42,801 nucleotides of DNA from Thermoproteota archaeon (GTDB taxonomy: Archaea > Korarchaeota > Korarchaeia > Korarchaeales > Korarchaeaceae), in assembly GCA_027491415.1 (NCBI GenBank), contig JAOZFH010000048.1, positions 1-42,801 of the forward strand. The letters are read 5' to 3'. How positions within the stretch are numbered: position 1 is the stretch's first letter; every line of letters starts with the position of its first letter. The position numbers and the translations under genes were made by a program. Below, one piece after another: positions 26,451-36,000 of this stretch. The notes under the pieces were generated by a model. That model saw only the letters and a program-made list of their open reading frames with translations, was not told the DNA's origin and did not search any database.

Positions 26451-27866
26451 TCACCCCCGTCCCGAGGCCAGCCCCCTCAGCAGGGAGAGGACCCTCTCCC
26501 TCGCCGACCTGACCCTCTCCTCCTCGGCCCTGAGCCACCCCTCGTCTTTCTTCAACCTCTCCTCCGCCGCCCCGGCCGACCTCAAGACCTCCCGGGGGTT
26601 GGGGCCTCCCTCCACCGTCCTGGCCCGCAGGGCCCCCTCAAGGTCTGGCGGGGGGAGCCCCAGGTCAGCCGCCACCTCCCCGACCCCCCTCCCGGCGGAC
26701 AGCCCCAGGGCCACGGACCGGTGGGCCTCCCTGAACGGGACCCCCCTCAGCGCCGCCTGCTCCGCCAGGTCCTGGGCGAGGCCCTCTCCGCCCGGTCCCG
26801 CCGCGTCCCTCCTCAGGGCCTCCCTGTCCCACTCAGCCCGGGCGAGGAGGTCCGCCATGACGGCCGACGCCCTCGCCGCCTCGTCCATGATCCAGAGGGA
26901 GTGGAGGGTCAGCTCCTGTAGGTCCAAGTTGTAGCCGCTGGGGAGGCCCTTCATCACGGCCGCCATCGCCAGGAGCCTTCCAATGGCCTCCCCGGCCCTC
27001 GCCCTCACCACCTCCAGGGTGACCGGGTTGACCTTCTGGGGCATGACGCTGCTGGAGGCGGAGTGCTCGGGGGGTACCCTCAGGTACCCGAAGTTAGGCG
27101 TCGACCACACTATCAGGTCCTCCGCCACCCTGCTCAGCGAGACCAGGAGCCACGCGGCCGGAGATGAGGAGGTGAGGAGGAAGTCCCTGGACCCCGACGC
27201 GTACAGGGTGTTCCCGACCACCCCTCTGAAGCCCAGCAGGTCGGCCACCCTCCTCCTGTCTACCGGCAGGGAGGGCCCCGACGCGGCGCACGCGCCCATG
27301 GGGGAAGCGTCGACCTCCTCCAGGGCCCGGGCCATGGAGCGCCAGTGGTGGGACACCGACTCCTCAACCGCCAGTGCGTAGTGCCCGAGCGTAGTCGGCT
27401 GGGCGTGCCTCAGGTGGGTGAAGGCCGGCATCGGCCAGTCGGCGAACCTCCCCCCCATCGACGAGAGGACCTCCCTAAGCCGCGCCGCCTGCCTCAGCGC
27501 CCGGAGCACCCTGGACCTCACGGCAAGCCTGATGGCCGCCGCCACCTGGTCGTTCCTGCTCTTCCCGAATCCGATCCAGCCTGCCGCCTCCTCCCCAATC
27601 TCCCCGACAATCCAGGCCTCCAGAGACTCGTGAACGTCGTCGTACTCGCCTGACAGGATCTCCTCCCTCGCGTTCAGCGATTTGAGGAGGGCGGAGGCGC
27701 AGGAGGAGGCCGCCGACCGCGGGATCAGGCCCAGCTCGGTCAGGTGGATCAGGTGGGCCGACGCCACGAGAACCACCTCCTCGAATATTAGCGGGTCCAC
27801 CGTCCTCAGCGAGGAGGTGTACTCGGCGATCCACCCAGGCCTCTCCCCCAGCGCGGGCCTGTACAA
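26451..27866 (-). CDS. argH: Argininosuccinate lyase
   Basis: DVHE, SRNDQVA, PAFTHLRHAQP, SSSVMPQKVNP, GYNLDLQE, PFREAH. Confidence 0.95.
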   Translation of the reverse strand: MYRPALGERPGWIAEYTSSLRTVDPLIFEEVVLVASAHLIHLTELGLIPRSAASSCASALLKSLNAREEILSGEYDDVHESLEAWIVGEIGEEAAGWIGFGKSRNDQVAAAIRLAVRSRVLRALRQAARLREVLSSMGGRFADWPMPAFTHLRHAQPTTLGHYALAVEESVSHHWRSMARALEEVDASPMGACAASGPSLPVDRRRVADLLGFRGVVGNTLYASGSRDFLLTSSSPAAWLLVSLSRVAEDLIVWSTPNFGYLRVPPEHSASSSVMPQKVNPVTLEVVRARAGEAIGRLLAMAAVMKGLPSGYNLDLQELTLHSLWIMDEAARASAVMADLLARAEWDREALRRDAAGPGGEGLAQDLAEQAALRGVPFREAHRSVALGLSAGRGVGEVAADLGLPPPDLEGALRARTVEGGPNPREVLRSAGAAEERLKKDEGWLRAEEERVRSARERVLSLLRGLASGRG

Positions 27867-29057
27867 CTAGCCCCTCGCCCCCCTCGCCAGCCAGGTCGGC
27901 AGCCCCCAGGCGGATATGAACCCCCTGGCCTGCTCGTCCGTCGGGTACCAGCCCTCATCGTAGCTCGCCACCTCTAGGCTGTAGGACTGGCGCTCGGCCC
28001 TCCTCCCCACCACCGCGACTGACCCCTTGTACAGCCTGAGCCTGACCTCCCCCGAGACCGGCCTGTCCAGGCTCGCTATGAACTCCTCGAGGCTCTCCCT
28101 GAGGGGAGACGCCCAGAGCCCCTCGTAGACCAGCCTCGTCCACTCCCCGTCGGCGAGGGACTTGAACCTGAGCTCCTCCTTGGTCAGGACGAGCTTCTCT
28201 AGGTCGAGGTGCGCCTCCAGAATTGTGACCGCGGCCGGGCACTCGTAGACCTCCCTGCTCTTGAACCCCACGACTCTGCTCTCCACGTGGTCGATCCTCC
28301 CCACCCCGTGAGCCCCGGCCAGCTCGTTCAGCCTGGTAACCAGGTCCTCCGGGGCCATCTCCTCCCCGTTCAGCGACGTGGGCACCCCGCCCTCAAAGCC
28401 CAGGGTGATCTCAAGCGGCTCGTCCGGCGCCCTCTCCGGATCCACCGTCCACTCGAAGGCCTCAGGGCTCGGCCCGGTCCAGGGATCCTCCAGCTCGGAC
28501 CCCTCGACGCTCCTGCCCCAGAGGTTCTGGTCTATCGAGTACCTGCGGTGGGCCCTCGGAACCGGGATACCCCTCTCCTCGGCGTACCGCACCTCTTCCT
28601 CCCTGGTCCAGCTCCAGACCCTGACCGGCGCCAGGACCTTCAGCTCGGGCGCGAGGGCCGCCGCCGTGAGGTCGAACCTGACCTGGTCGTTCCCCTTGGC
28701 CGTGCACCCGTGGGCCACCGCGTCGGCCCCGACCTCCCTAGCCACCTCCACGAGCTTCTCCACGATGAGCGGCCTCGAGAGGGCGCTGGACAGGGGATAC
28801 TTCCCCTCGTAGAGGGCGTTGGCCCTCACGGCCGGCCAGACGAACCTCTCCACGAACTCCCTCCTGGCGTCCACGTGGACGTGCCTGGATGCCCCAGCCG
28901 CCACCGCCCTCTCCCTGAGCTCGGCCTCGTCCGCGCCCTGCCCCACGTCCACGGTTAGGGTGACGACCTCTACTCCAGCCTCGGAGAACCACTTGACGGC
29001 CACCGTGGTGTCCAGCCCGCCCGAGTACGCGAGGACGACCCTAGAAACAGACTCCAG
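27867..29057 (-). CDS. argG: Argininosuccinate synthase (probable CTG start)
   Basis: VVLAYSGGLDT upstream of the ORF-track start; YPLSSALSRP, HGCTAKGNDQVRF, YSIDQNLWGRS, KSREVYE. Confidence 0.95.
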   Translation of the reverse strand: MESVSRVVLAYSGGLDTTVAVKWFSEAGVEVVTLTVDVGQGADEAELRERAVAAGASRHVHVDARREFVERFVWPAVRANALYEGKYPLSSALSRPLIVEKLVEVAREVGADAVAHGCTAKGNDQVRFDLTAAALAPELKVLAPVRVWSWTREEEVRYAEERGIPVPRAHRRYSIDQNLWGRSVEGSELEDPWTGPSPEAFEWTVDPERAPDEPLEITLGFEGGVPTSLNGEEMAPEDLVTRLNELAGAHGVGRIDHVESRVVGFKSREVYECPAAVTILEAHLDLEKLVLTKEELRFKSLADGEWTRLVYEGLWASPLRESLEEFIASLDRPVSGEVRLRLYKGSVAVVGRRAERQSYSLEVASYDEGWYPTDEQARGFISAWGLPTWLARGARG

Positions 29058-29199
29058 CCCCCTCTGGGGCTTCAGGTATTCCGGTAACGCACGGTATCAC
29101 CTAGACCGCCCCTCGCGATTCTTTCTATTTTACCCTTGCCGCCGGGGCCCGTTCACGTTAAATAAGGACCCTCCGGCCAGCCCTCTCTCGGGACCCCCC

Positions 29200-29595
29200 A
29201 TGAGGATCGCCGTACCCAGCGAGGACGACGGGGGCCTCGAGTCCACCGTCAGCCCGCACTTCGGTCGAGCCAGGTTCTACACCATCGTGGATGTGGACGG
29301 GCGCGAGATACGTTCAGTGAGGGTGGTACAGACGCCCTTCCAGCAGCACGGGCCCGGGGACATTCCGAGCTTCCTCCGGGGCCTCGGGGTCGACGTGGTG
29401 CTCGCCTACGGGTTGGGGGTCAGGGCTCGGCAGTTCTTCTCCCAGATGGGGATTCGGGTGGTCACCGGCGCGATGGGGAGGGTAGGCGACGTGATCAGGG
29501 CCTACCTGGAGGGAACCCTCGTGGTGGACGAGAACTGGGAGTCCAGGCCCGGGTTCGGGGAGCACGGCCGCGGGCACGCCGGCCACGCAACCTGA
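29200..29595 (+). CDS. NifB/NifX-family metal-cluster-binding protein
   Basis: MRIAVPS...VSPHFGRARFY...HGPGDIP...GVRARQFF; His-containing tail. Confidence 0.9.
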   Translation: MRIAVPSEDDGGLESTVSPHFGRARFYTIVDVDGREIRSVRVVQTPFQQHGPGDIPSFLRGLGVDVVLAYGLGVRARQFFSQMGIRVVTGAMGRVGDVIRAYLEGTLVVDENWESRPGFGEHGRGHAGHAT

Positions 29596-29709
29596 CCCCC
29601 CTCGTCCGGTCGGCTGAACTGGCTCTCGGCCAGTCCGCCAGCCGCATGGAGTTCCGGGAACTTCGGCGGCCGCCCGTCCCCCGAGCGAGGGGCCCCCTGG
29701 GGGGCCGCA

Positions 29710-29724
29710 GTTTCGAAGTGAAAC
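29710..29724. promoter_or_regulatory. Palindromic operator GTTTC-N5-GAAAC (site 1)
   Basis: GTTTC gaagt GAAAC, 8 nt before a T-rich TATA-like box, upstream of TauE copy 1. Confidence 0.75.
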
Positions 29725-29770
29725 TCCCACGCTTTTAGATGTTCCAAAATGGGGGGCCCTGGGGGCCGGC

Positions 29771-30571
29771 ATGGGCGCTCAAGAGGTCGTCGCGCTGCTG
29801 GTCGGGGTAGCCGCGGGCACCCTCGGCGGGCTCATCGGGACGGGCGGCTGCAGCGTGATGCTACCCATACTGGACTTCTACATGGGGCTGCCGCCGACGC
29901 TCGCGATCGGCACCACCCTCTTCGCGGTGATGTTCACAACGCTCTCCGGGGCCTACGGCCACCTCAGGATCAGGAATCTGGACCTCGGCACCACCGCGGT
30001 TATGGGCGGAGCGGGGACCGTCGGGGTGCTCATAGGGTCCTACATCTTCACCGGTATCGCTAGGACGAGGCTTAGCTTGCTCAACCTGATCTTGGGAGCC
30101 GTCTTCCTTCTGCCCGCCCTGAGGATGTTCTACGAGGGGATATCAGGACTCAGAGGTGCGTCGGTCTCAGCGAAGAGTGAGACGGAGGGGATCCCCGGGG
30201 CTGCAGCCCCGAAGGCCCTGTTTGGATTTGCGATAGGGGTGACGACCGGGCTGGTGGGCCTAGGGGGCGGGTACGCCCTCGTGCCGGGGATGATCTATCT
30301 GTTCCACGCGCCCGTCAAGCTGGCCATGGGGACGTCCCTCTCCACGATGATCCCCCTGGCGGTCGTTGGCGGACTGATCAAGCTGAGTCAGGGCTTCGTC
30401 AGGCTGGAGATAGGCCTTCCGCTGGCCGCTGGCACGGTCGTGGGGGCCCAGTTGGGAGCCAGGGCGATCAAGAGAGTCAGGCCGGCGACGCTGAAGGCGC
30501 TCTTCGGGGCGTACTTCCTGTACGTGTCCCTCAAGTACATCGCCTCTTACTTCGGCGTGAGGCTCTGGTGA
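29771..30571 (+). CDS. TauE/SafE (TSUP) family transporter, copy 1
   Basis: GTLGGLIGTGGC, AIGTTL, GLVGLGGGYALVP, AMGTSL, GAQLGA; about 8 TM helices. Confidence 0.92.
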   Translation: MGAQEVVALLVGVAAGTLGGLIGTGGCSVMLPILDFYMGLPPTLAIGTTLFAVMFTTLSGAYGHLRIRNLDLGTTAVMGGAGTVGVLIGSYIFTGIARTRLSLLNLILGAVFLLPALRMFYEGISGLRGASVSAKSETEGIPGAAAPKALFGFAIGVTTGLVGLGGGYALVPGMIYLFHAPVKLAMGTSLSTMIPLAVVGGLIKLSQGFVRLEIGLPLAAGTVVGAQLGARAIKRVRPATLKALFGAYFLYVSLKYIASYFGVRLW

Positions 30572-30622
30572 TCTCTTGAGAACGGGCTCTCCGACTCAGG
30601 GGCTCCAGCGGCCTCTCCCTCT

Positions 30623-30637
30623 GTTTCGTTTTGAAAC
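30623..30637. promoter_or_regulatory. Palindromic operator (site 2)
   Basis: GTTTC gtttt GAAAC ending 25 nt before the ATG of the Lrp-type regulator. Confidence 0.75.
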
Positions 30638-30662
30638 CAAAAGTTAGAATGATTATTACCAA

Positions 30663-31247
30663 ATGAGCAGCCCCGGAGGGGCCGTGAACTCGAGAGATCT
30701 GCGGCTAGTGGCCAGGCTCAGAGAGATCGGGATCCGGCGGGGCCGGTTCTCGCTGACTGAACTGGCGAGGGTCGAGGGAGTCACTCACGTGGCGGTCGGA
30801 AAGAGGCTAAGGAGGCTGATCGCGAGGGGAGAGTACAGGCTGGTTCCCGAGGTGAATCTGAGCAAGCTGGGCTACAAGGTCGCGCTGGTCAAGGTGGAGG
30901 TCCCGGGGTACGCCGAACTCGCCAAGCTCGAGGGTCTGTACGCGAAATGCCCTCGGACCATCTGGATGATGGAGTCGATGGGCAACTACAGCCTGATCAT
31001 ACTGATGTACGCCGAGAACGACGCGGTTCTCAAGAGCATCCTGTCCAGCTGCTCTGTGAGGACGAGGCCTGAAGTCAGGAAGTCGGAGGTGGAGGTCGGT
31101 GAGATAGTCGGTGGCTTCGCTCCGATTGTCCCGCCGGTCGGGGGCGAGCTCTCAGAAGCCCCCTGCGGTGTGTACTGCGCGGAGTGTCAAAGGTATGAGA
31201 GCGGGGACTGCAAGGGGTGTCCACTGACCGAACACTACCGCCCTTAA
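30663..31247 (+). CDS. Lrp/AsnC-family regulator with C-terminal Cys cluster
   Basis: SLTELARVEGVTHVAVGKRLRRL HTH, VNLSKLGY, RAM domain, tail PCGVYCAECQRYESGDCKGCP. Confidence 0.87.
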   Translation: MSSPGGAVNSRDLRLVARLREIGIRRGRFSLTELARVEGVTHVAVGKRLRRLIARGEYRLVPEVNLSKLGYKVALVKVEVPGYAELAKLEGLYAKCPRTIWMMESMGNYSLIILMYAENDAVLKSILSSCSVRTRPEVRKSEVEVGEIVGGFAPIVPPVGGELSEAPCGVYCAECQRYESGDCKGCPLTEHYRP

Positions 31248-31254
31248 CCTAGTG

Positions 31255-31269
31255 GTTTCACCTTGACAC
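31255..31269. promoter_or_regulatory. Palindromic operator (site 3, one mismatch)
   Basis: GTTTC acctt GACAC, 7-8 nt before TTTAAT. Confidence 0.65.
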
Positions 31270-31312
31270 TCCCCTCTTTAATGGCTCTGCTGACGGCTGA
31301 GTTGGCCCACTC

Positions 31313-32314
31313 ATGAAGGTGCTAACCGCCGACTTGGGCTCTGACGGGCTGAACCTGGCCCTTGACGAAGCTCTGCTGAGGAGGCTGGGATCCTCTAGCA
31401 GGGATCCCGTCGCCAGAATATACTCCGGTGAGGGATCCCTGGTCTTGGGGGCGAGAAGCGGTCTGTCGGCAGATCAGGTGAGGGCTCTGGAGCGCTCCGG
31501 CTTGTCCGTGCTGAGGAGGGCTTCTTCGGGAGATCCCTACATGATCGCCCCTGGGTGGGTCTCTCTCACGCTCGTTACGCCCTGCTCGCCGTCCGAGACT
31601 GCGTCGAAGACTTGTGAGAAGCTGTCAAGTCTGGCCTCAGACCTGCTCTCCGCCGCCGGATACGAACTAGACTTCGAGCAGGCCACAGGATCTGCTCGGC
31701 TGAATGGCTCGCGAGTGTTCATTGGAGGATTCGCCTTCTACAGGAGCGGAGCGATGCTCCAGGGCGGCCTGTGGGTAGGTGACGCTGAGCTTAGCTTTCC
31801 CATCTTCAGAGACGCGCGGAGCCTGTCTGAAGTCCTTGGAATCGCTGTAGAGACGAAAGTCGTCTTCGAGAGAATGGTAGAGGCTGCGAGGGAGCTGGGT
31901 TGGGAAGATGGTCGCGTCGAAGATGAGGACCTGAAGCTGGCGGACCTCCTCTGGAGGAAGAAGTACTCCAGCAGGGCTTGGATCGAGAGGAGCTTAGAGC
32001 CGCTGACGCTAAAGGACCTTCTCATAGAGCTTTACGTTGCCAATCCGCCCACGTCTATATGCAAGGAGTTTGCAAAGATTCTCTCTTCAGCTATCTCAGG
32101 GCTGGAGGACAGAGTGGAGGTCAGGATATGGAGGAGGGGGATGGGCCGCCCGCCGGGCGTGCCCGTCTCGGGCGGGCTCGTGAAGGCATCAAAGGAGTCT
32201 AGGATACCCGCGATAGTGATTAACGGCGAGCTGCTCTTCTACTGCCGACCGCCCGCCGTCGGAGACGTGAGGAAGGCTATACTCAAGAGGCTCCCTAGAG
32301 AGGAAGAGGACTAG
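31313..32314 (+). CDS. Degenerate lipoate-protein-ligase-like domain fused to a thioredoxin-like domain
   Basis: NLALDEALL, LVLG, VLRRASSGD, KYSSRAW; C-terminal IELYVANPPTSIC...IPAIVINGEL. Confidence 0.7.
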   Translation: MKVLTADLGSDGLNLALDEALLRRLGSSSRDPVARIYSGEGSLVLGARSGLSADQVRALERSGLSVLRRASSGDPYMIAPGWVSLTLVTPCSPSETASKTCEKLSSLASDLLSAAGYELDFEQATGSARLNGSRVFIGGFAFYRSGAMLQGGLWVGDAELSFPIFRDARSLSEVLGIAVETKVVFERMVEAARELGWEDGRVEDEDLKLADLLWRKKYSSRAWIERSLEPLTLKDLLIELYVANPPTSICKEFAKILSSAISGLEDRVEVRIWRRGMGRPPGVPVSGGLVKASKESRIPAIVINGELLFYCRPPAVGDVRKAILKRLPREEED

Positions 32315-33234
32315 AGCGGCCTGACCCCGCCGGATCGGGGATCGGAGGTGAGAGCATGCTCTATCGCCTCAGCCACGGCCCCGCCAGCCTCTCTAGCTTG
32401 AGGATAGTCTAGCCACTCCACTCGCCCGCCAGAGTGCACTATGGCTCCGATGGGACCCCCTCTCCCGACCAAGAGATGAACCCTAACGGATCCGTCCGAG
32501 CTAGTGCCCCAGTAGACCTCAAGCGGGCCGAGATCTCTCCTGCAGTACTTCGGCAGGAGGCTCTCGGCGAGCCTCACTTCCTCGGGAGTGAATTCTCCTT
32601 GGCGTGGCTGGAGCCCCAGGGAGAGCGCGACGCGATTCACTAGCAAAGATAGTAGCTCTGTTGGATCTACCTCTCGGCCCATCAGATCAGATACATTCGC
32701 TACAGGGGCCTTCGGCCTGGCTATGACGGCGTTCAGAGCCTCTAGATTGGTCGAGACCAGGAGCGTTCCGTGGTGGAGCAGACCCCCGTATAACATCGAT
32801 TGAGCCGTCCCCGACACTTTGAGGCCCCTAACCCAGACCCCCAAGTCGCAGAACTCGGGTTCTAAACCCATATCCCTCAAGAGGTCCGCTACTCCAGCCG
32901 AGAGCGTCCTGTACCTATCTTTAGCCTCTTCGGGAGCCGAGCGTCTGGGGACGATAACCGAGTATATGAGACAGCCTGGATCGAGATACACGGCCCCTCC
33001 ACCGCTCTCCCTCCGGACTAGGCGAATTCCCAGCTCTTCAACGGCCTGCAAGTCTACTTCTTTCAAGGTCTCGGGGTTGACGCCTATGACCACTGCCGGG
33101 CGGGCTCTCCAAGCGATTACCGTGGCCTCGGACTTACCCTCGCCCAAGAGGCGGAGAACGGCCTCTTCAAGGGCGAGCCCCCACGCAACGTCGATCGGAT
33201 TGCGGAGAATGATTGTCCTAATGCCGTCCCTCAT
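32311..33234 (-). CDS. Lipoate-protein ligase A family protein
   Basis: LALEEA, PAVVIG, VRRESGGGAVYLD, GLKVSGTAQ, LLHHGTLL; ATGA overlap with the upstream gene. Confidence 0.88.
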   Translation of the reverse strand: MRDGIRTIILRNPIDVAWGLALEEAVLRLLGEGKSEATVIAWRARPAVVIGVNPETLKEVDLQAVEELGIRLVRRESGGGAVYLDPGCLIYSVIVPRRSAPEEAKDRYRTLSAGVADLLRDMGLEPEFCDLGVWVRGLKVSGTAQSMLYGGLLHHGTLLVSTNLEALNAVIARPKAPVANVSDLMGREVDPTELLSLLVNRVALSLGLQPRQGEFTPEEVRLAESLLPKYCRRDLGPLEVYWGTSSDGSVRVHLLVGRGGPIGAIVHSGGRVEWLDYPQAREAGGAVAEAIEHALTSDPRSGGVRPL

Positions 33235-33992
33235 GCCGTTCGACCTCGCGGGTGGTAAGGGCATCTCTCACCCCAGCACTCGCCGTTGCGCTCACTGAAC
33301 ATGCATGCGCCCTCGAGATCTCTTAACACCACAGGTATGCCTATTTCTTCTCTGAGTATTGGCACCGCCACCTCCAGCGAGGCGTAGACGCTGGCCTTGC
33401 AGCACCTAGGGCCCCCGAGCCCAGCAATCCTCTTGAGGGCAGAGGCGGTCGTCTCCATGGCGAGAGACCTCTCCCTGTCTGACTTGTGGGTCGCTCCGGT
33501 GATCACGCTCACGATCACGCCAGCCCCTATAGCGGCGCCACACACGCCCAGAAGGCCGCACGCCGCATAGGGTATTGGCTTGAGTCTCGCGATAGCCCTC
33601 TTGATGTGAGACAGACTCAGCTCTGCTCCAGCGTTCTTGGCGGCCGCTAGGAGCGAGGCGGCCACTACGAGGTGATGTATCGGCCCGAAGAGATCCACGG
33701 CTGGGTGAGTGAAGATCCGGTCGGCTATTAGGGATGGGTCAGCTTCACTCGACCTGCTCGCGACCTTAAGCACGATCTCCTCGCCGCTCGCCAGCCTACA
33801 CTCCTCGCAGACGTAGTGGCCGTTAATGCACACGAAGTCGGCGGGCTCCCTCTTCCCGCAGTAGTAGCACTCCCACTCGCCGCTCGCTGGCTTAAGGGGG
33901 GCTCCACATATTGGGCAGGATGCCTCCCCGCTCGTCAGCCGGCTTAGGAGATCTCCTTTGTCTTCCATCTCCACGATCGGTTCTCGATCCAT
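33231..33992 (-). CDS. Cys-rich DUF5714-like protein with N-terminal Zn-ribbons
   Basis: CPICG, CYYCG, CINGHYVCEEC, GPIHH, ACGLLGVCGAA, GGPRCCK, C...NGECWGERCPY. Confidence 0.8.
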   Translation of the reverse strand: MDREPIVEMEDKGDLLSRLTSGEASCPICGAPLKPASGEWECYYCGKREPADFVCINGHYVCEECRLASGEEIVLKVASRSSEADPSLIADRIFTHPAVDLFGPIHHLVVAASLLAAAKNAGAELSLSHIKRAIARLKPIPYAACGLLGVCGAAIGAGVIVSVITGATHKSDRERSLAMETTASALKRIAGLGGPRCCKASVYASLEVAVPILREEIGIPVVLRDLEGACMFSERNGECWGERCPYHPRGRTA

Positions 33993-34103
33993 GGAAAAAG
34001 GTTTTGCAAAAAGTGGCGGCCGTCGAACTGCCTTCACAGCTTGCGCGAGCCGCCGCTTGCCGCCCCCATGGCCAGAGAGCGCCTATCAACTCCCGGAGTA
34101 GAT

Positions 34104-34134
34104 GTTTCAATATGTAACCATTTCAACATGAAAC
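34104..34134. promoter_or_regulatory. Tandem palindromic operators (sites 4 and 5) in a divergent promoter
   Basis: GTTTC aatat GTAAC (34104-34118) and ATTTC aacat GAAAC (34120-34134), 8 nt before TTTTTAA. Confidence 0.75.
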
Positions 34135-34179
34135 TCTCACACTTTTTAACAGACGTGTAGAGCTAACTAGGTGATCTCA

Positions 34180-34980
34180 ATGGAGCTCCTGTACGTCTTA
34201 GCGCTGCTAGTGGGTCTAGCTGCTGGTACTCTTGGAGGACTCATTGGCACTGGAGGCTGCAGCGTGATGCTCCCCATACTTCACTTCTACATGGGCCTCT
34301 CGTCCCCACTAGCAGTTGGCACCACGCTCTTCGCGGTCATATTCACGACGCTCTCCGGAGCCTACGGACACCTCAAGATCCGGAACCTAGACGCAAAGGC
34401 AACGGCCGTGATGGGTGGCGCCGGGACCCTGGGGGTCTTGTTGGGCTCGTACCTCTTCACCAAGATAACGCGCTCCCAGGTCGCTCTGCTCGATCTAATC
34501 CTCGGCTTAGTGTTCATCCTACCCTCCATAAGGATGCTCTATGAGGGCCTCAAGGGCATGCGCGGAGTTCCAGCCAAGGGCGAGAGCCAGCTTGACCACA
34601 TACCAGGGAGTTCCACGGCCAAGGCTGCCTTTGGTTTCGTCGTTGGGATAGCGACCGGCTTGGTCGGCCTGGGGGGAGGCTACGCGCTGGTTCCCGGCAT
34701 GATATACCTGTTCAACGCTCCCGTGAAGCTGACGATGGGCACCTCCCTCTCAACAATGATACCCCTCGCTGTCGTCGGCGGCTTGATCAAGCTCAAGCAG
34801 GGCTTCGTCGAAATGAGCGTGGGCGTTCCCCTAGCGATAGGGACGGTGATAGGAGCCCAGATGGGGGCCAGGGCCATCAAGAGGTTCAGGCCAGCCACGC
34901 TTAAGGCGATATTCGGGCTGTACTTCCTCTACGTGTCGCTGAAGTACGTAGCCGCCTACTTCGGAGTGAGGCTCTGGTAG
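34180..34980 (+). CDS. TauE/SafE family transporter, copy 2
   Basis: Same length and long identical protein blocks versus copy 1; ATG 34180 after AGGTGA. Confidence 0.92.
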   Translation: MELLYVLALLVGLAAGTLGGLIGTGGCSVMLPILHFYMGLSSPLAVGTTLFAVIFTTLSGAYGHLKIRNLDAKATAVMGGAGTLGVLLGSYLFTKITRSQVALLDLILGLVFILPSIRMLYEGLKGMRGVPAKGESQLDHIPGSSTAKAAFGFVVGIATGLVGLGGGYALVPGMIYLFNAPVKLTMGTSLSTMIPLAVVGGLIKLKQGFVEMSVGVPLAIGTVIGAQMGARAIKRFRPATLKAIFGLYFLYVSLKYVAAYFGVRLW

Positions 34981-34995
34981 CTCGCGCCTATCCTC

Positions 34996-35367
34996 TTACA
35001 GGATTGCTATGGCGTCGATCTCAACCAATGCTCCCTTGGGGAGCGATCCGAAAGCGATTGACCTGGCTGGAGGATCGCTGGGGAAGTACTTAGTGTAGAC
35101 CTCGTTAAACTTGCTGAACAGCTCGGGCTTGGCCAGAAAGGCCGTCACCTTGACCACGCTCTCCAGCGAGGAGCCCGCAGCCTCAAGGATAGACCTTAGG
35201 TTCTCTAAAGCCCTCTCCGTTTGGGCTGCTATGCCTTCTTTAAGCTCTCCCGACTTGGGGTCAATCCCGAGCTGCCCAGAGACGAAGACAAATCCTCCGG
35301 CCACGATAGCCTGAGAGTACGGCCCAATAGGCTTCGGAGCCTTCTCAGTCGTGACGACCCTGGCCAA
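34996..35367 (-). CDS. ridA: RidA/YjgF/UK114 enamine deaminase
   Basis: APKPIGPYSQA, VSGQLG, FNEVY, PPARS, LPKGALVEIDAIA. Confidence 0.95.
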   Translation of the reverse strand: MARVVTTEKAPKPIGPYSQAIVAGGFVFVSGQLGIDPKSGELKEGIAAQTERALENLRSILEAAGSSLESVVKVTAFLAKPELFSKFNEVYTKYFPSDPPARSIAFGSLPKGALVEIDAIAIL

Positions 35368-35553
35368 GAATCTCCACCCTCTGCCAGACGTTTAGAGGTC
35401 ACCTATATTCTTCCTTGTGCTGAGCGTCTCCCAGTAGATCAGAGGATCAGCAACTCGGGGATGGCTCCATACAGCATCCGACAATAATCCAGCGCCCTGG
35501 GGCGGGAGAGGTCAACTGAAGTTATTTGGTAAGAGGGGGCCGCGCACCCCACG

Positions 35554-36000
35554 ATGGAGCTGCTATCCCTAAACGCCTGCTCTCGCCTGTTGCGGGAGAA
35601 GAGGAGGCTGCTGATCTATGGAAAGTGTCTCGAGGTTGAGAGGCCAGGCCTCGTGGAGGGTCTGTCTGAGGGCAGGGTCGCAGTCTGGGCATGCCCGGAG
35701 AGAGACCACATCAACGTGATAGCGCTGAAGGTGGTCTCGATCATAGCCCGAGTAGACTTGGAGGAGGTGACTGTTGTGACTGTGGATGGGAGCCCCCACT
35801 GCGTCCAGCTGCACCACGCCGTGGAAGAGGCTATCAAGGTCACAAAAAGTGAAGACCTAAGCGTGAAGCACCTTGTGTGCCACGGAGACAAGCTCATTGA
35901 AGTCTCACCTCGTGCGGTTAAAGTGGCGAGGTACCTGAGCAAGGTGAAGAGTCTGCTGAGGTTAGAGGAAGAACGCAGGAGTTCTCTCGAGCGAGAGTAG
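35554..36000 (+). CDS. Conserved Cys-containing protein of the 4Fe-4S ferredoxin-associated type
   Basis: LLIYGKC, ACPERDH, TVDGSPHCVQLH, VKVARYLS. Confidence 0.7.
   Translation: MELLSLNACSRLLREKRRLLIYGKCLEVERPGLVEGLSEGRVAVWACPERDHINVIALKVVSIIARVDLEEVTVVTVDGSPHCVQLHHAVEEAIKVTKSEDLSVKHLVCHGDKLIEVSPRAVKVARYLSKVKSLLRLEEERRSSLERE

Follow-up and report, generated by a model that had tools for sequence, protein, structure and literature searches.

Contig JAOZFH010000048.1 of the korarchaeal assembly GCA_027491415.1 (contig C9 in our numbering; the genome comprises 1,783,303 bp in 63 contigs at 63% G+C) is 42,801 nucleotides long, and this whole stretch is referred to below as the window. Between positions 29710 and 34980 it carries six genes that we treat as one cluster. 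Two of them encode TauE/SafE (TSUP) permeases, TauE-1 (29771..30571, + strand) and TauE-2 (34171..34980, + strand), and a third, 30684..31247 on the + strand, encodes P0001, an Lrp/AsnC-type regulator with a winged helix-turn-helix (wHTH), a RAM domain and a cysteine-bearing tail. The other three, which we call the triad, encode P0002 (31313..32314, + strand), a pseudo-LplA joined to a thioredoxin-like (Trx-like) domain; P0004 (32311..33264, − strand), an LplA-family lipoate-protein ligase paralogue; and a Cys/His-rich DUF5714 protein (33231..34037, − strand). Five copies of the palindrome GTTTC-N5-GAAAC lie in front of these genes. We propose, at a probability of roughly 0.6, that the cluster is a local regulon under the cysteine-tailed regulator and responds to stress from thiol-reactive sulfur or, as a second choice, from metalloids.

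Palindromic boxes and the cysteine-tailed regulator

The sequence-only reading of this DNA had described five GTTTC-N5-GAAAC operators, all of them intergenic. All five coordinates stood, and comparison with the long open reading frames (ORFs) placed every site between them, although only two copies are exact and the other three carry one mismatch each. The exact copies are O1 (GTTTCGAAGTGAAAC, 29710..29724), which precedes TauE-1 and lies 8 nt 5′ of TTTTAGA (29733-29739), and O2 (GTTTCGTTTTGAAAC, 30623..30637), which precedes the regulator gene and is followed by the AT-rich aaagttagaatgattatta; both are identical in the sister-genome locus L008. O3 (GTTTCACCTTGACAC, 31255..31269, mismatch GAcAC) precedes the P0002 gene, 7 nt 5′ of TTTAATGG (31277-31284). 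O4 (GTTTCAATATGTAAC, 34104..34118, mismatch GtAAC) and O5 (ATTTCAACATGAAAC, 34120..34134, mismatch aTTTC) form a tandem with 16 bp between centres in the divergent DUF5714 / TauE-2 intergenic region, where O5 lies 8 nt 5′ of TTTTTAAC (34143-34150) and precedes TauE-2.

Exact copies of the palindrome occur twice in the window against an expectation of 0.01, and none of 100 shuffles contained two or more. Allowing one mismatch yields five sites in the window, O1 to O5, against 0.44 expected, a count reached by 0 of 100 shuffles. A genome-wide scan, proposed by the sequence-only reading as a check, found that the two exact copies are the sole ones in 1.78 Mb. Of the 24 genomic sites with at most one mismatch, five fall within this 4.4-kb stretch and the remaining 19 are about the number expected by chance, and of 13 genomic occurrences of the relaxed core TTWC-N5-GWAA four lie in this cluster. 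The same scan placed no box near the third TauE gene (contig C7) or near the other LplA gene (contig C28), and within the window there was none in front of the 29197..29595 gene, the argH-argG pair or the RidA gene. The sole other operator-like site in the genome, TTTCGTCGTGAAA at position 1128 of contig C5, matches the relaxed box, yet it is an arm of a longer hairpin near the contig end (a 9-bp inverted repeat, GTCGTGAAA / TTTCACGAC) and was set aside as probably a hairpin of a different kind.

At three promoters the box is separated from a T-rich box by a pyrimidine spacer of the length and letters first described: tcccacgc (8 nt) before TTTTAGA, tcccctc (7 nt) before TTTAATGG and tctcacac (8 nt) before TTTTTAAC. 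The T-rich boxes are putative TATA boxes, and the box-spacer-TATA stretches at O1 and O5 are alike. This layout had been read as the geometry of an activator. As an analogy that is reasonable and makes activation a candidate sign of regulation, since the box-then-TATA order recurs at targets elsewhere and matches the one published for CopR, discussed below. For the regulator gene, a distance of 25 nt from O2 to the ATG had been taken to indicate autorepression. That distance holds for the alternative ATG at 30663, but the regulator's database copies and its relatives begin at GTG 30684, which is the likely start and lies 46 nt from O2. Given this start and the AT-rich stretch that follows O2, the regulator promoter resembles the target promoters and not a classical autorepressed one, and the autorepression reading is not supported for this gene.

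P0001 is an Lrp/AsnC regulator with an extra five-cysteine tail, and it belongs to an archaea-wide, uncharacterised family of proteins of about 190 residues. Taken alone it has no Pfam match above threshold (PF13404, E 0.055) and matches Lrp proteins in the PDB weakly, the best being 2cyy at 3.8e-5 over residues 25-128. A profile of the whole family finds solved Lrp/AsnC proteins at 1e-19 across its positions 3-148, and among 51 aligned members 48 match the HTH_AsnC-type PF13404 and 21 match AsnC_trans_reg, PF01037. An AlphaFold2 (AF2) model of the regulator, with a pLDDT of 93.4 that includes the tail, has wHTH helices at 10-26, 31-38 and 42-54 and, by DSSP, the beta-alpha-beta-beta-alpha-beta order of a RAM domain (strands 72-79, 99-104, 111-117 and 140-146; helices 83-94 and 120-128). 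All top Foldseek matches are Lrp/AsnC proteins, with target-normalised TM scores up to 0.84 (PH0140). The tail cysteines are C168, C172, C175, C183 and C186. In the 51-sequence alignment C96-P97-R98 (the CPR motif), C168, C172, C175, C183, C186-P187 and Y192 are invariant and C130 is nearly so. The description of this protein as an Lrp regulator with a cysteine cluster was thereby borne out, by the family profile, the RAM topology, the Foldseek matches and the invariant tail cysteines.

A word-based protein search returned four close matches to the regulator; an exhaustive HMMER search returned 287 representative clusters at E<=1e-3, mostly of about 190 residues and aligned end to end. Full-length copies are present in 23 of the 43 genomes that the searched set contains for the phylum, and the regulator's neighbours in the Protein Atlas are all archaeal and bear generic Lrp/AsnC names. 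The TRASH domain, PF08394, has no match anywhere in the genome. When five tails were scanned at E values up to 10, the sole matches were sub-threshold ones to DUF3795 (E 0.03-0.11, in three of the five), which fall on the CGxxCxxC start of that family. Assignment of the tail to a radical-SAM-like CX3CX2C site or to DUF3795 was dropped, as no match supported it.

The box and the gene neighbours of the regulator family

To ask whether the palindrome goes with the regulator more widely, we compared 33 non-redundant regulator loci, which represent 32 distinct upstream sequences. Of the 33 loci, 16 have TTWC-N5-GWAA among the 120 nt that precede the regulator gene, corresponding to 15 of the 32 distinct sequences. 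Mononucleotide shuffling gives an expectation of 0.39, with a maximum of 3 in 2000 shuffles, and AT-matched control windows from the same loci contain the motif in 28 of 1038 cases (2.7%). With palindromes in 15 of 32 distinct upstream sequences against 2.7% of control windows, the palindrome is very probably the operator of the family. Distant members are included: GTTTCAAATTGTAAC occurs at the regulator of an Asgard metagenome-assembled genome (MAG; locus L010), and GTTACGTTTAGTAAC, GTTTCCTTTCGTAAC and GTTTCATATTGAAAC occur at members from other korarchaeal genera. In two Desulfurococcales MAGs (L012 and L013), GTTTCAAATTGTAAC heads an operon in which the regulator is the last gene. Three sister genomes (L006-L008) retain the boxes as well, at the corresponding promoters. 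The GACAC variant of O3 is retained in L006 and L007, O4 is conserved in L006 and has two mismatches in L007, and O5 is conserved in L006 and has lost its left half in L007. Conservation among these genomes says little, because their intergenic alignments are 88-89% identical overall. The claim that the palindrome serves as this regulator's operator thus gained support, as far as sequence comparison goes, from the three sister genomes and from related palindromes in front of distant members in other phyla.

In the common divergent layout, the TauE start is followed after about 30 nt by a TATA-like TTTATAAA, then after 4-8 nt by the palindrome, and after a further 0-5 nt by the regulator ATG. 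At these distant loci the box lies between the TATA-like box and the regulator ATG, which suggests autorepression geometry, and seen from TauE the same box is just upstream of the TATA-like box. Autoregulation is apparently a family trait. At the genes for a sulfide:quinone reductase-like (SQR-like) protein that accompany two paralogues of the regulator, one box lies 6-7 nt 5′ of a TATA-like box and a second lies over the start codon. The two boxes stand at an operon of SQR-like and DUF1641 genes (L049:4080-4160 and L051:8330-8410), with the second overlapping a TTG start and the regulator paralogue about 650 bp past the end of the operon. Genome G039 has three full-length regulator paralogues (L047, L048 and L049) with half-sites GTTAC..GTAAC, GTTTC..GTAAC and TTTAC..GTAGC, and these slightly differing half-sites raise the question of how cross-talk is avoided.

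TauE is the regulator's most common partner. Both permeases of the cluster match PF01925 far above its cut-off of 32.6 bits (TauE-1, 5.7e-44, 151 bits; TauE-2, 4.4e-43, 148 bits), covering profile positions 2-236 of 237, so the predicted TauE pair was correct. The two share 75% identity, and the TauE-2 orthologues in L006 and L007 are 95-96% identical to TauE-2. A TauE gene lies at most 400 bp from the regulator in 15 of the 33 loci and at most 3.5 kb away in 3 more. The co-occurrence of all these genes had been put forward as well; the regulator/TauE pairing recurs elsewhere, whereas DUF5714 and LplA are joined to it in this genus only. In the Asgard locus, the TauE gene beside the regulator (L010:6520-6864, a 92-aa ORF) matches just the last ~115 residues of TauE and is probably a truncated or decayed copy.

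Other recurrent neighbours are the SQR-like gene and DUF1641 beside paralogues in L049, L051 and probably L046, where HdrA-like and ETF genes accompany them. In Desulfurococcales, the regulator ends an operon with an MTH895/ArsE-family thioredoxin-like protein and an ArsP_1-type permease. Elsewhere the family adjoins DGC-domain proteins, PF04060 iron-sulfur (Fe-S) proteins, DUF1847, an MrpORP/ApbC-type carrier, OsmC together with EamA, and a methyltransferase together with an MFS transporter; the methyltransferase that adjoins the Asgard regulator does not resemble ArsM. In the loci examined we saw neither a persulfide dioxygenase nor a rhodanese.

The DUF5714, LplA and thioredoxin-like triad

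The genes between the two permeases had been described as a lipoate-ligase pair with a DUF5714 partner. The DUF5714 identity is secure (PF18978, 5.6e-51, 173 bits against a cut-off of 26.2). Its true start is likely to be near 33968, since the N-termini of homologues align from M24. The gene overlaps lplA by 34 nt, P0004 being the product of the second gene of this DUF5714-lplA operon. For the ligase pair the description fits P0004 only, as P0002 joins a pseudo-ligase to a thioredoxin-like domain with one cysteine. P0004 belongs to the LplA family (PF21948, 6.2e-44; PDB 1vqz, 1.3e-19) and keeps the RRxSGGGAVY and G-x-K-x-x-G-x-AQ motifs, the choice of catalytic lysine being our assumption. Against the NCBIfam equivalog model TIGR00545 it scores 115.9 bits, far below the cut-off of 280, and as a member of so divergent a subfamily it need not have lipoate as its substrate. 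A better LplA match is encoded elsewhere in the genome (contig C28), as are a separate GcvH (C51) and an E2 lipoyl protein (C38).

P0002 has the LplA catalytic fold. Its AF2 model (pLDDT 92.1) matches Thermoplasma acidophilum LplA in Foldseek at an E value of 1e-15. The position of the catalytic lysine is occupied by Arg here and varies among 14 homologues, and P0002 has a degenerate form of the SGGG motif. Residues ~236-326 fit a thioredoxin topology (beta-alpha-beta-alpha-beta-beta-alpha) with an invariant PPTxxC motif that has one cysteine (C250), not CxxC, and an invariant P299 at the cis-Pro position. This domain has no Pfam thioredoxin match and an NCBIfam match at E 0.09; PDB sequence searches with P0002 and with the DUF5714 profile gave nothing useful.

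The DUF5714 alignment has 24 invariant columns, among them 13 Cys and 3 His, and an invariant CCK motif that contains K214. The protein also matches NF045648, the model of MbdU, a ‘metal-binding double selenoprotein’ (a row in the tabulated part of PMC13188914), with 160 bits against a cut-off of 600 and over positions 37-268 of 468. We rejected this identity: the score is below the cut-off, only the N-terminal half of the model is covered, and the protein has Cys and no in-frame stop. A search of the open-access literature found no paper on DUF5714.

Within the phylum, DUF5714 is present in 3 of the 43 genomes, all of this genus. In metagenomes at least 598 stretches match the DUF5714 search pattern and 581 of them were confirmed; the comparisons that follow use the best 80 of these 581. 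DUF5714 is directly followed, in the same orientation, by LplA and/or the LplA-like/Trx-like protein at 27 of these 80 loci. The 25 closest loci (L074-L098) have an LplA/Trx-like partner in 23 cases, and the two exceptions are on truncated contigs. Loci that lack the fusion encode a standalone PPTxxC protein of 116-121 residues after LplA (hhalign probabilities 98.1 and 96.8). One of the 80 loci contains a TauE gene; none contains the regulator. The triad is thus a separate, uncharacterised conserved module. The regulator and TauE recur without LplA or DUF5714, and the triad recurs without the regulator and with TauE in 1 of 80 loci, so the two are modules joined in this genus only.

A predicted complex of P0002 and DUF5714 gave an ipSAE of 0.76, the best of three controls reaching 0.00; in a benchmark, 58 of 80 solved complexes and 2 of 110 mismatched pairs attained this ipSAE mark. 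The runs share at least 86% of contacts, with partner pLDDT values of at least 87. In the predicted interface, the PPTxxC / cis-Pro face of P0002 (residues 242-251 and 296-299) packs against the DUF5714 segment beside C77/C80. As far as the confidence of a model goes, this supports binding of DUF5714 by the Trx-like domain of P0002.

We then annotated 21 triad loci with Pfam and NCBIfam. At least one of ArsR-type HTH_5, Acr3-type SBF, ArsA, ArsM, LMWPc ArsC-like and ArsP_2 lies within 4 kb in nine of them; OsmC is found in five, DGC-domain proteins in three, GcvH in two and dihydrolipoyl dehydrogenase in one. Two methyltransferases at triad loci exceed the NCBIfam arsenite-methyltransferase cut-off (367 and 342 bits, against 263). 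A further 22, more distant DUF5714 loci have heterogeneous neighbours apart from LMWPc, adjacent in three. At two ArsR-linked loci (L079:3472-4943 and L087:1967-3276), DGC-domain proteins and a full GcvH above the NCBIfam cut-off are encoded directly upstream of the triad, and in L079 a CBS protein is also encoded upstream of the DUF5714, LplA-like and LplA genes; these GcvH proteins are candidates for a dedicated lipoyl carrier in a metalloid context.

The cluster is flanked upstream by an argH-argG pair (26451-29003, − strand) and a gene for a small Nitro_FeMo-Co / MrpORP-C-terminal-like protein (29197..29595, + strand; PF02579, 1.2e-19). The latter matches the C-terminal part of NCBIfam MrpORP at 6.9e-19, far under the cut-off. 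Its long ORF, 28819-29595, overlaps argG by 185 nt, which makes a real start near 29197 probable. In each of the four genomes of this genus the gene immediately precedes either the regulator or TauE-1, as judged from synteny with L006-L008, and its membership of the regulon is uncertain. Nitro_FeMo-Co domains also adjoin DUF5714 in 5 of the 80 metagenome loci, two of them fused to DUF134. Downstream is a RidA/L-PSP gene (34996-35367, − strand), syntenic in L006-L008. G+C content is 57-61% in the cluster (30001-36000) and 65-69% in the upstream flank. This lower G+C, together with the presence of DUF5714 in a single genus, suggests that the DUF5714/LplA/Trx-like/TauE-2 part was probably acquired by transfer. 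Pfam and NCBIfam searches for canonical ars genes (ArsR, Acr3, ArsB, ArsC and ArsM) found none in the cluster, and neither Acr3 nor ArsB was found in the whole genome.

A candidate thiol-stress regulon and its alternatives

Several known systems resemble parts of this cluster. Extracts of a report on CopR of Pyrococcus furiosus (PMC7830388) describe an octameric Lrp/AsnC protein with a C-terminal TRASH domain that binds the semi-palindrome TTNNCAWWWTGNNAA directly upstream of the B recognition element (BRE) at eight of nine regulated promoters; these have a TC-rich −35 to −50 region, and CopR is both a repressor and an activator. As far as those extracts reach, CopR (PF0739, with CopR/CopT of Thermococcus/Saccharolobus) shares with P0001 an Lrp/AsnC core followed by a C-terminal, Cys-bearing sensory tail. 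In both systems the box is an AT-centred semi-palindrome of 15 bp, built around CA-W3-TG and adjoining BRE/TATA on its upstream side, pyrimidines prevail from the box to TATA, and regulator and transporter genes form divergent pairs. CopR makes further contacts 3′ of TATA, with which the second boxes at the SQR-like genes may be compared. Unlike CopR, P0001 has a tail that is not TRASH and a TauE partner in place of the CopA P-type ATPase. The window holds no copy of the CopR motif TTNNCAWWWTGNNAA at up to one mismatch. The outer T/A pairs are one base closer here. What our boxes have in common with that motif is just CA-N3-TG at the centre and a palindromic layout over 15 bp. The sequence of P0001 finds only weak matches among other Lrp proteins, the best PDB value being the 3.8e-5 given above. 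By this analogy the regulator is a relative of CopR in design, not in sequence, and thus a variant of the CopR-like sensory Lrp design.

Classical archaeal Lrp/FFRP proteins (LrpA, FL11/PH1519, Ptr2, Ss-LrpB and BarR) likewise combine a wHTH and RAM fold with AT-centred palindromes, and LrpA autorepression, as cited in the same extracts of PMC7830388, has a box between TATA and start codon as at the distant family members. Lrp/AsnC regulators assemble from dimers up to octamers and bind AT-centred palindromes of 13-15 bp; on the sequence side, the palindromes beside the genes of our family agree with this. The classical proteins differ from P0001, which has an extra five-Cys tail of ~45 residues, the CPR motif and C130 in the RAM domain, and whose associated genes encode permeases and thiol/sulfur proteins and not amino-acid metabolism. 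In bacterial persulfide-sensor regulons, TauE and SQR are signature genes according to the excerpted text of PMC7315123. The regulons of CstR, BigR, SqrR and FisR, insofar as that excerpt covers them, also have a Cys-dependent regulator that adjoins TauE, often divergently, much as an SQR-like gene adjoins paralogues of our regulator. These bacterial sensors have the unrelated CsoR, ArsR and sigma-54 activator folds, archaeal promoter logic differs, and the loci examined here lack the persulfide dioxygenase and rhodanese of bacterial reactive-sulfur regulons. ArsR-controlled ars operons share Cys-based sensing with the cluster, the triad lies inside such islands in other prokaryotes, and the ArsE-like Trx and ArsP-type permease stand beside Desulfurococcales regulators; this cluster is without ArsR, Acr3, ArsB, ArsC or ArsM.

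The triad itself recalls LplA-LplB, the bipartite lipoate ligase of T. acidophilum (PDB 3r07, 2c8m and 2ars), which also has two adjacent genes of the LplA-fold family. The N-terminal domain of P0002 superposes on these chains with target-normalised TM scores of 0.70-0.77, and P0004 matches the LplA-LplB chains by sequence at 7.6e-17. Unlike the LplB accessory domain, P0002 is a degenerate catalytic-fold domain with a PPTxxC thioredoxin-like domain, and a Cys-rich DUF5714 partner accompanies the pair in every case. Lipoylated proteins serve as reductants of Ohr/OsmC peroxidases according to a partial text of PMC5384416, and the OsmC (5/21), GcvH (2/21) and dihydrolipoyl dehydrogenase (Lpd; 1/21) neighbours of the triad elsewhere would fit a lipoyl-dithiol redox role. 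The window has no OsmC, GcvH or Lpd, so that this link runs via the neighbourhoods of other organisms only.

A model can be built from what we infer about DNA binding, the sign of regulation, the effector, the substrate moved by TauE and how the triad works chemically. The regulator would bind GTTTCA-N3-TGAAAC, a 15-bp AT-centred palindrome, as a dimer inside a higher oligomer. At TauE-1, the LplA-like/Trx-like gene, TauE-2 and probably the regulator gene, the box would lie 6-8 nt 5′ of a TATA-like box and over the BRE position, and we propose that its occupancy there decides TFB/TBP loading; the tandem boxes O4/O5 would serve the divergent DUF5714-lplA / TauE-2 region. Seven conserved cysteines, the five of the tail with C96 and C130 in the RAM domain, may read the signal through a metal or Fe-S centre or by direct reaction. 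The effector would most likely be thiol-reactive sulfur, either sulfide-derived persulfide/polysulfide or sulfite, with a thiophilic metalloid such as arsenite as second choice. The output would be export through the TauE pair together with a module for dithiol/lipoyl-cofactor maintenance, in which an active LplA would lipoylate targets and the pseudo-LplA/one-Cys Trx-like protein would act on the Cys-rich DUF5714. Sulfur takes first rank on account of the genes that recur beside the regulator itself, TauE and the SQR-like gene, and the metalloid comes second because of the triad's neighbours elsewhere and the ArsE-like/ArsP operon. The common theme is thiol/dithiol stress from sulfur species or metalloids.

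A number of observations weigh against this proposal. At up to two mismatches, the window still holds just five boxes against 7.45 expected, so there is no enrichment and the signal is carried by near-perfect copies. A first look at the genome gave 28 candidates for further Lrp-like proteins, each of them a possible user of the boxes, and the likeness of O1 and O5 with their spacers could simply reflect TauE-1/TauE-2 duplication. The strict box is absent upstream in 17 of the 32 distinct family loci, and these loci are interrelated, so that the counts overstate independent support. The best NCBIfam match of the SQR-like protein, type III sulfide:quinone reductase, scores 278 bits against a cut-off of 525. 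In a search for sequencing runs that contain positions 29500-35000, no RNA run came up, and just two DNA runs matched, with 8% of the sampled words. Finally, the ArsE-like Trx and ArsP_1 beside Desulfurococcales regulators and the ars neighbours of the triad point to arsenic.

The best-surviving alternative, which we regard as unlikely although well ahead of the others, takes up this last point. Here the tail would bind As(III)/Sb(III) or another soft metal in an arsenic-type defence regulon, TauE would export a metalloid-thiol or oxyanion, and the triad would replace or protect lipoyl dithiols, a classical target of arsenite. The nine ars-associated triad loci, the two methyltransferases above the arsenite-methyltransferase cut-off, the LMWPc genes directly beside DUF5714 in 3 of the 22 more distant loci, the box-headed Desulfurococcales operons (L012 and L013) of ArsE-type Trx and ArsP_1, the lack of Acr3 and ArsB in this genome and the precedent of CopR as a metal-sensing Lrp all favour it. 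The window, however, has no canonical ars gene, TauE is not known to carry arsenic and our search of the open-access literature found no report of it, and HTH_5 regulators sense many metals besides arsenic. The methyltransferase of the Asgard regulator is not ArsM-like, the ArsE and ArsC-like matches lie below their cut-offs, and the regulator's commonest partners are TauE and, at paralogues, the SQR-like gene, which argues for sulfur.

More doubtful is an Fe-S redox switch with a [4Fe-4S] or rubredoxin-like centre seated in the CX3CX2C...CX2C tail; the regulator would report oxygen, NO or Fe-S status in place of a sulfur or metalloid species and control genes of Fe-S or thiol maintenance. The invariance of C168-X3-C172-X2-C175 and then C183-X2-C186, the family neighbours PF04060, DUF1847, the MrpORP/ApbC-type Fe-S carrier, HdrA-like and ETF, and the Nitro_FeMo-Co / MrpORP-tail protein upstream of the cluster would suit it. 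Yet the tail matches no cluster-binding family, the sub-threshold DUF3795 matches in three of five tails aside, and for TauE, the leading partner, an Fe-S role is not evident.

The pathway first suggested for this locus, in which TauE imports lipoate or a sulfur analogue and the LplA pair loads it onto DUF5714 under a redox- or sulfur-sensing Lrp, now appears quite improbable. A box common to all the genes, the LplA motifs retained in P0004, the lysine (K214) offered by the invariant CCK motif of DUF5714 and the constant company of LplA among the closest relatives of DUF5714 speak for it, and we know of no established prokaryotic lipoate importer. Against it, TauE and the triad occur together in this genus only, with DUF5714 in 3 of 43 genomes while the regulator with TauE is widespread, and TauE is present in 1 of 80 DUF5714 loci. 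P0002 is without a conserved catalytic lysine, and the predicted DUF5714 contact is the thioredoxin-like face, not the ligase active site. Some triad loci have the normal acceptor GcvH and dihydrolipoyl dehydrogenase, and this genome owns a separate LplA, GcvH and E2 lipoyl protein. As the two modules travel separately, import by TauE and attachment to a Cys-rich partner are not supported as one system, and among the pathways considered this one is the least supported.

That the boxes are not operators of P0001 at all, either as promoter copies carried along with duplicated genes or as sites of a different transcription factor, is very unlikely: the paralogous TauE genes have like box-spacer-TATA stretches, the sister genomes are too close for discriminating footprinting and the genome has many Lrp paralogues, but boxes precede three unrelated genes too, like palindromes stand by distant members in other phyla at far above control rates, and the third TauE (C7) and the other LplA (C28) have none.

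Our preferred reading, a regulon for thiol-reactive sulfur or metalloid stress under a cysteine-tailed Lrp, can be extended tentatively, to something we consider possible but on the unlikely side. In this extension, Cys-tailed Lrp proteins would be archaea-wide sensors of reactive sulfur (or metalloids) that act from the operator GTTWCA-N3-TGWAAC on the BRE, an archaeal counterpart of bacterial CstR, BigR and SqrR. The triad would be a new system for lipoyl/dithiol protection that also belongs to bacterial and archaeal arsenic islands, its Trx-like domain exchanging sulfur, disulfide or metalloid with the DUF5714 CxxC knuckle. Our search of the open-access literature found no Lrp/AsnC arsenic sensor or cysteine-tail sensor in archaea, and no report of lipoate ligases in arsenic islands.

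The signal is known for few transcription factors of archaea, and the work described here provides a family of 287 clusters with a candidate operator, a partner gene and a candidate cysteine sensor. Should the effector prove to be arsenite or a sulfur species, no Lrp-type sensor of such a kind would have come before it, and archaeal TauE/TSUP permeases would gain a physiological context. The recurrence of the triad in metalloid-resistance islands links lipoylation to thiol/metalloid stress, and DUF5714 gains a predicted partner.

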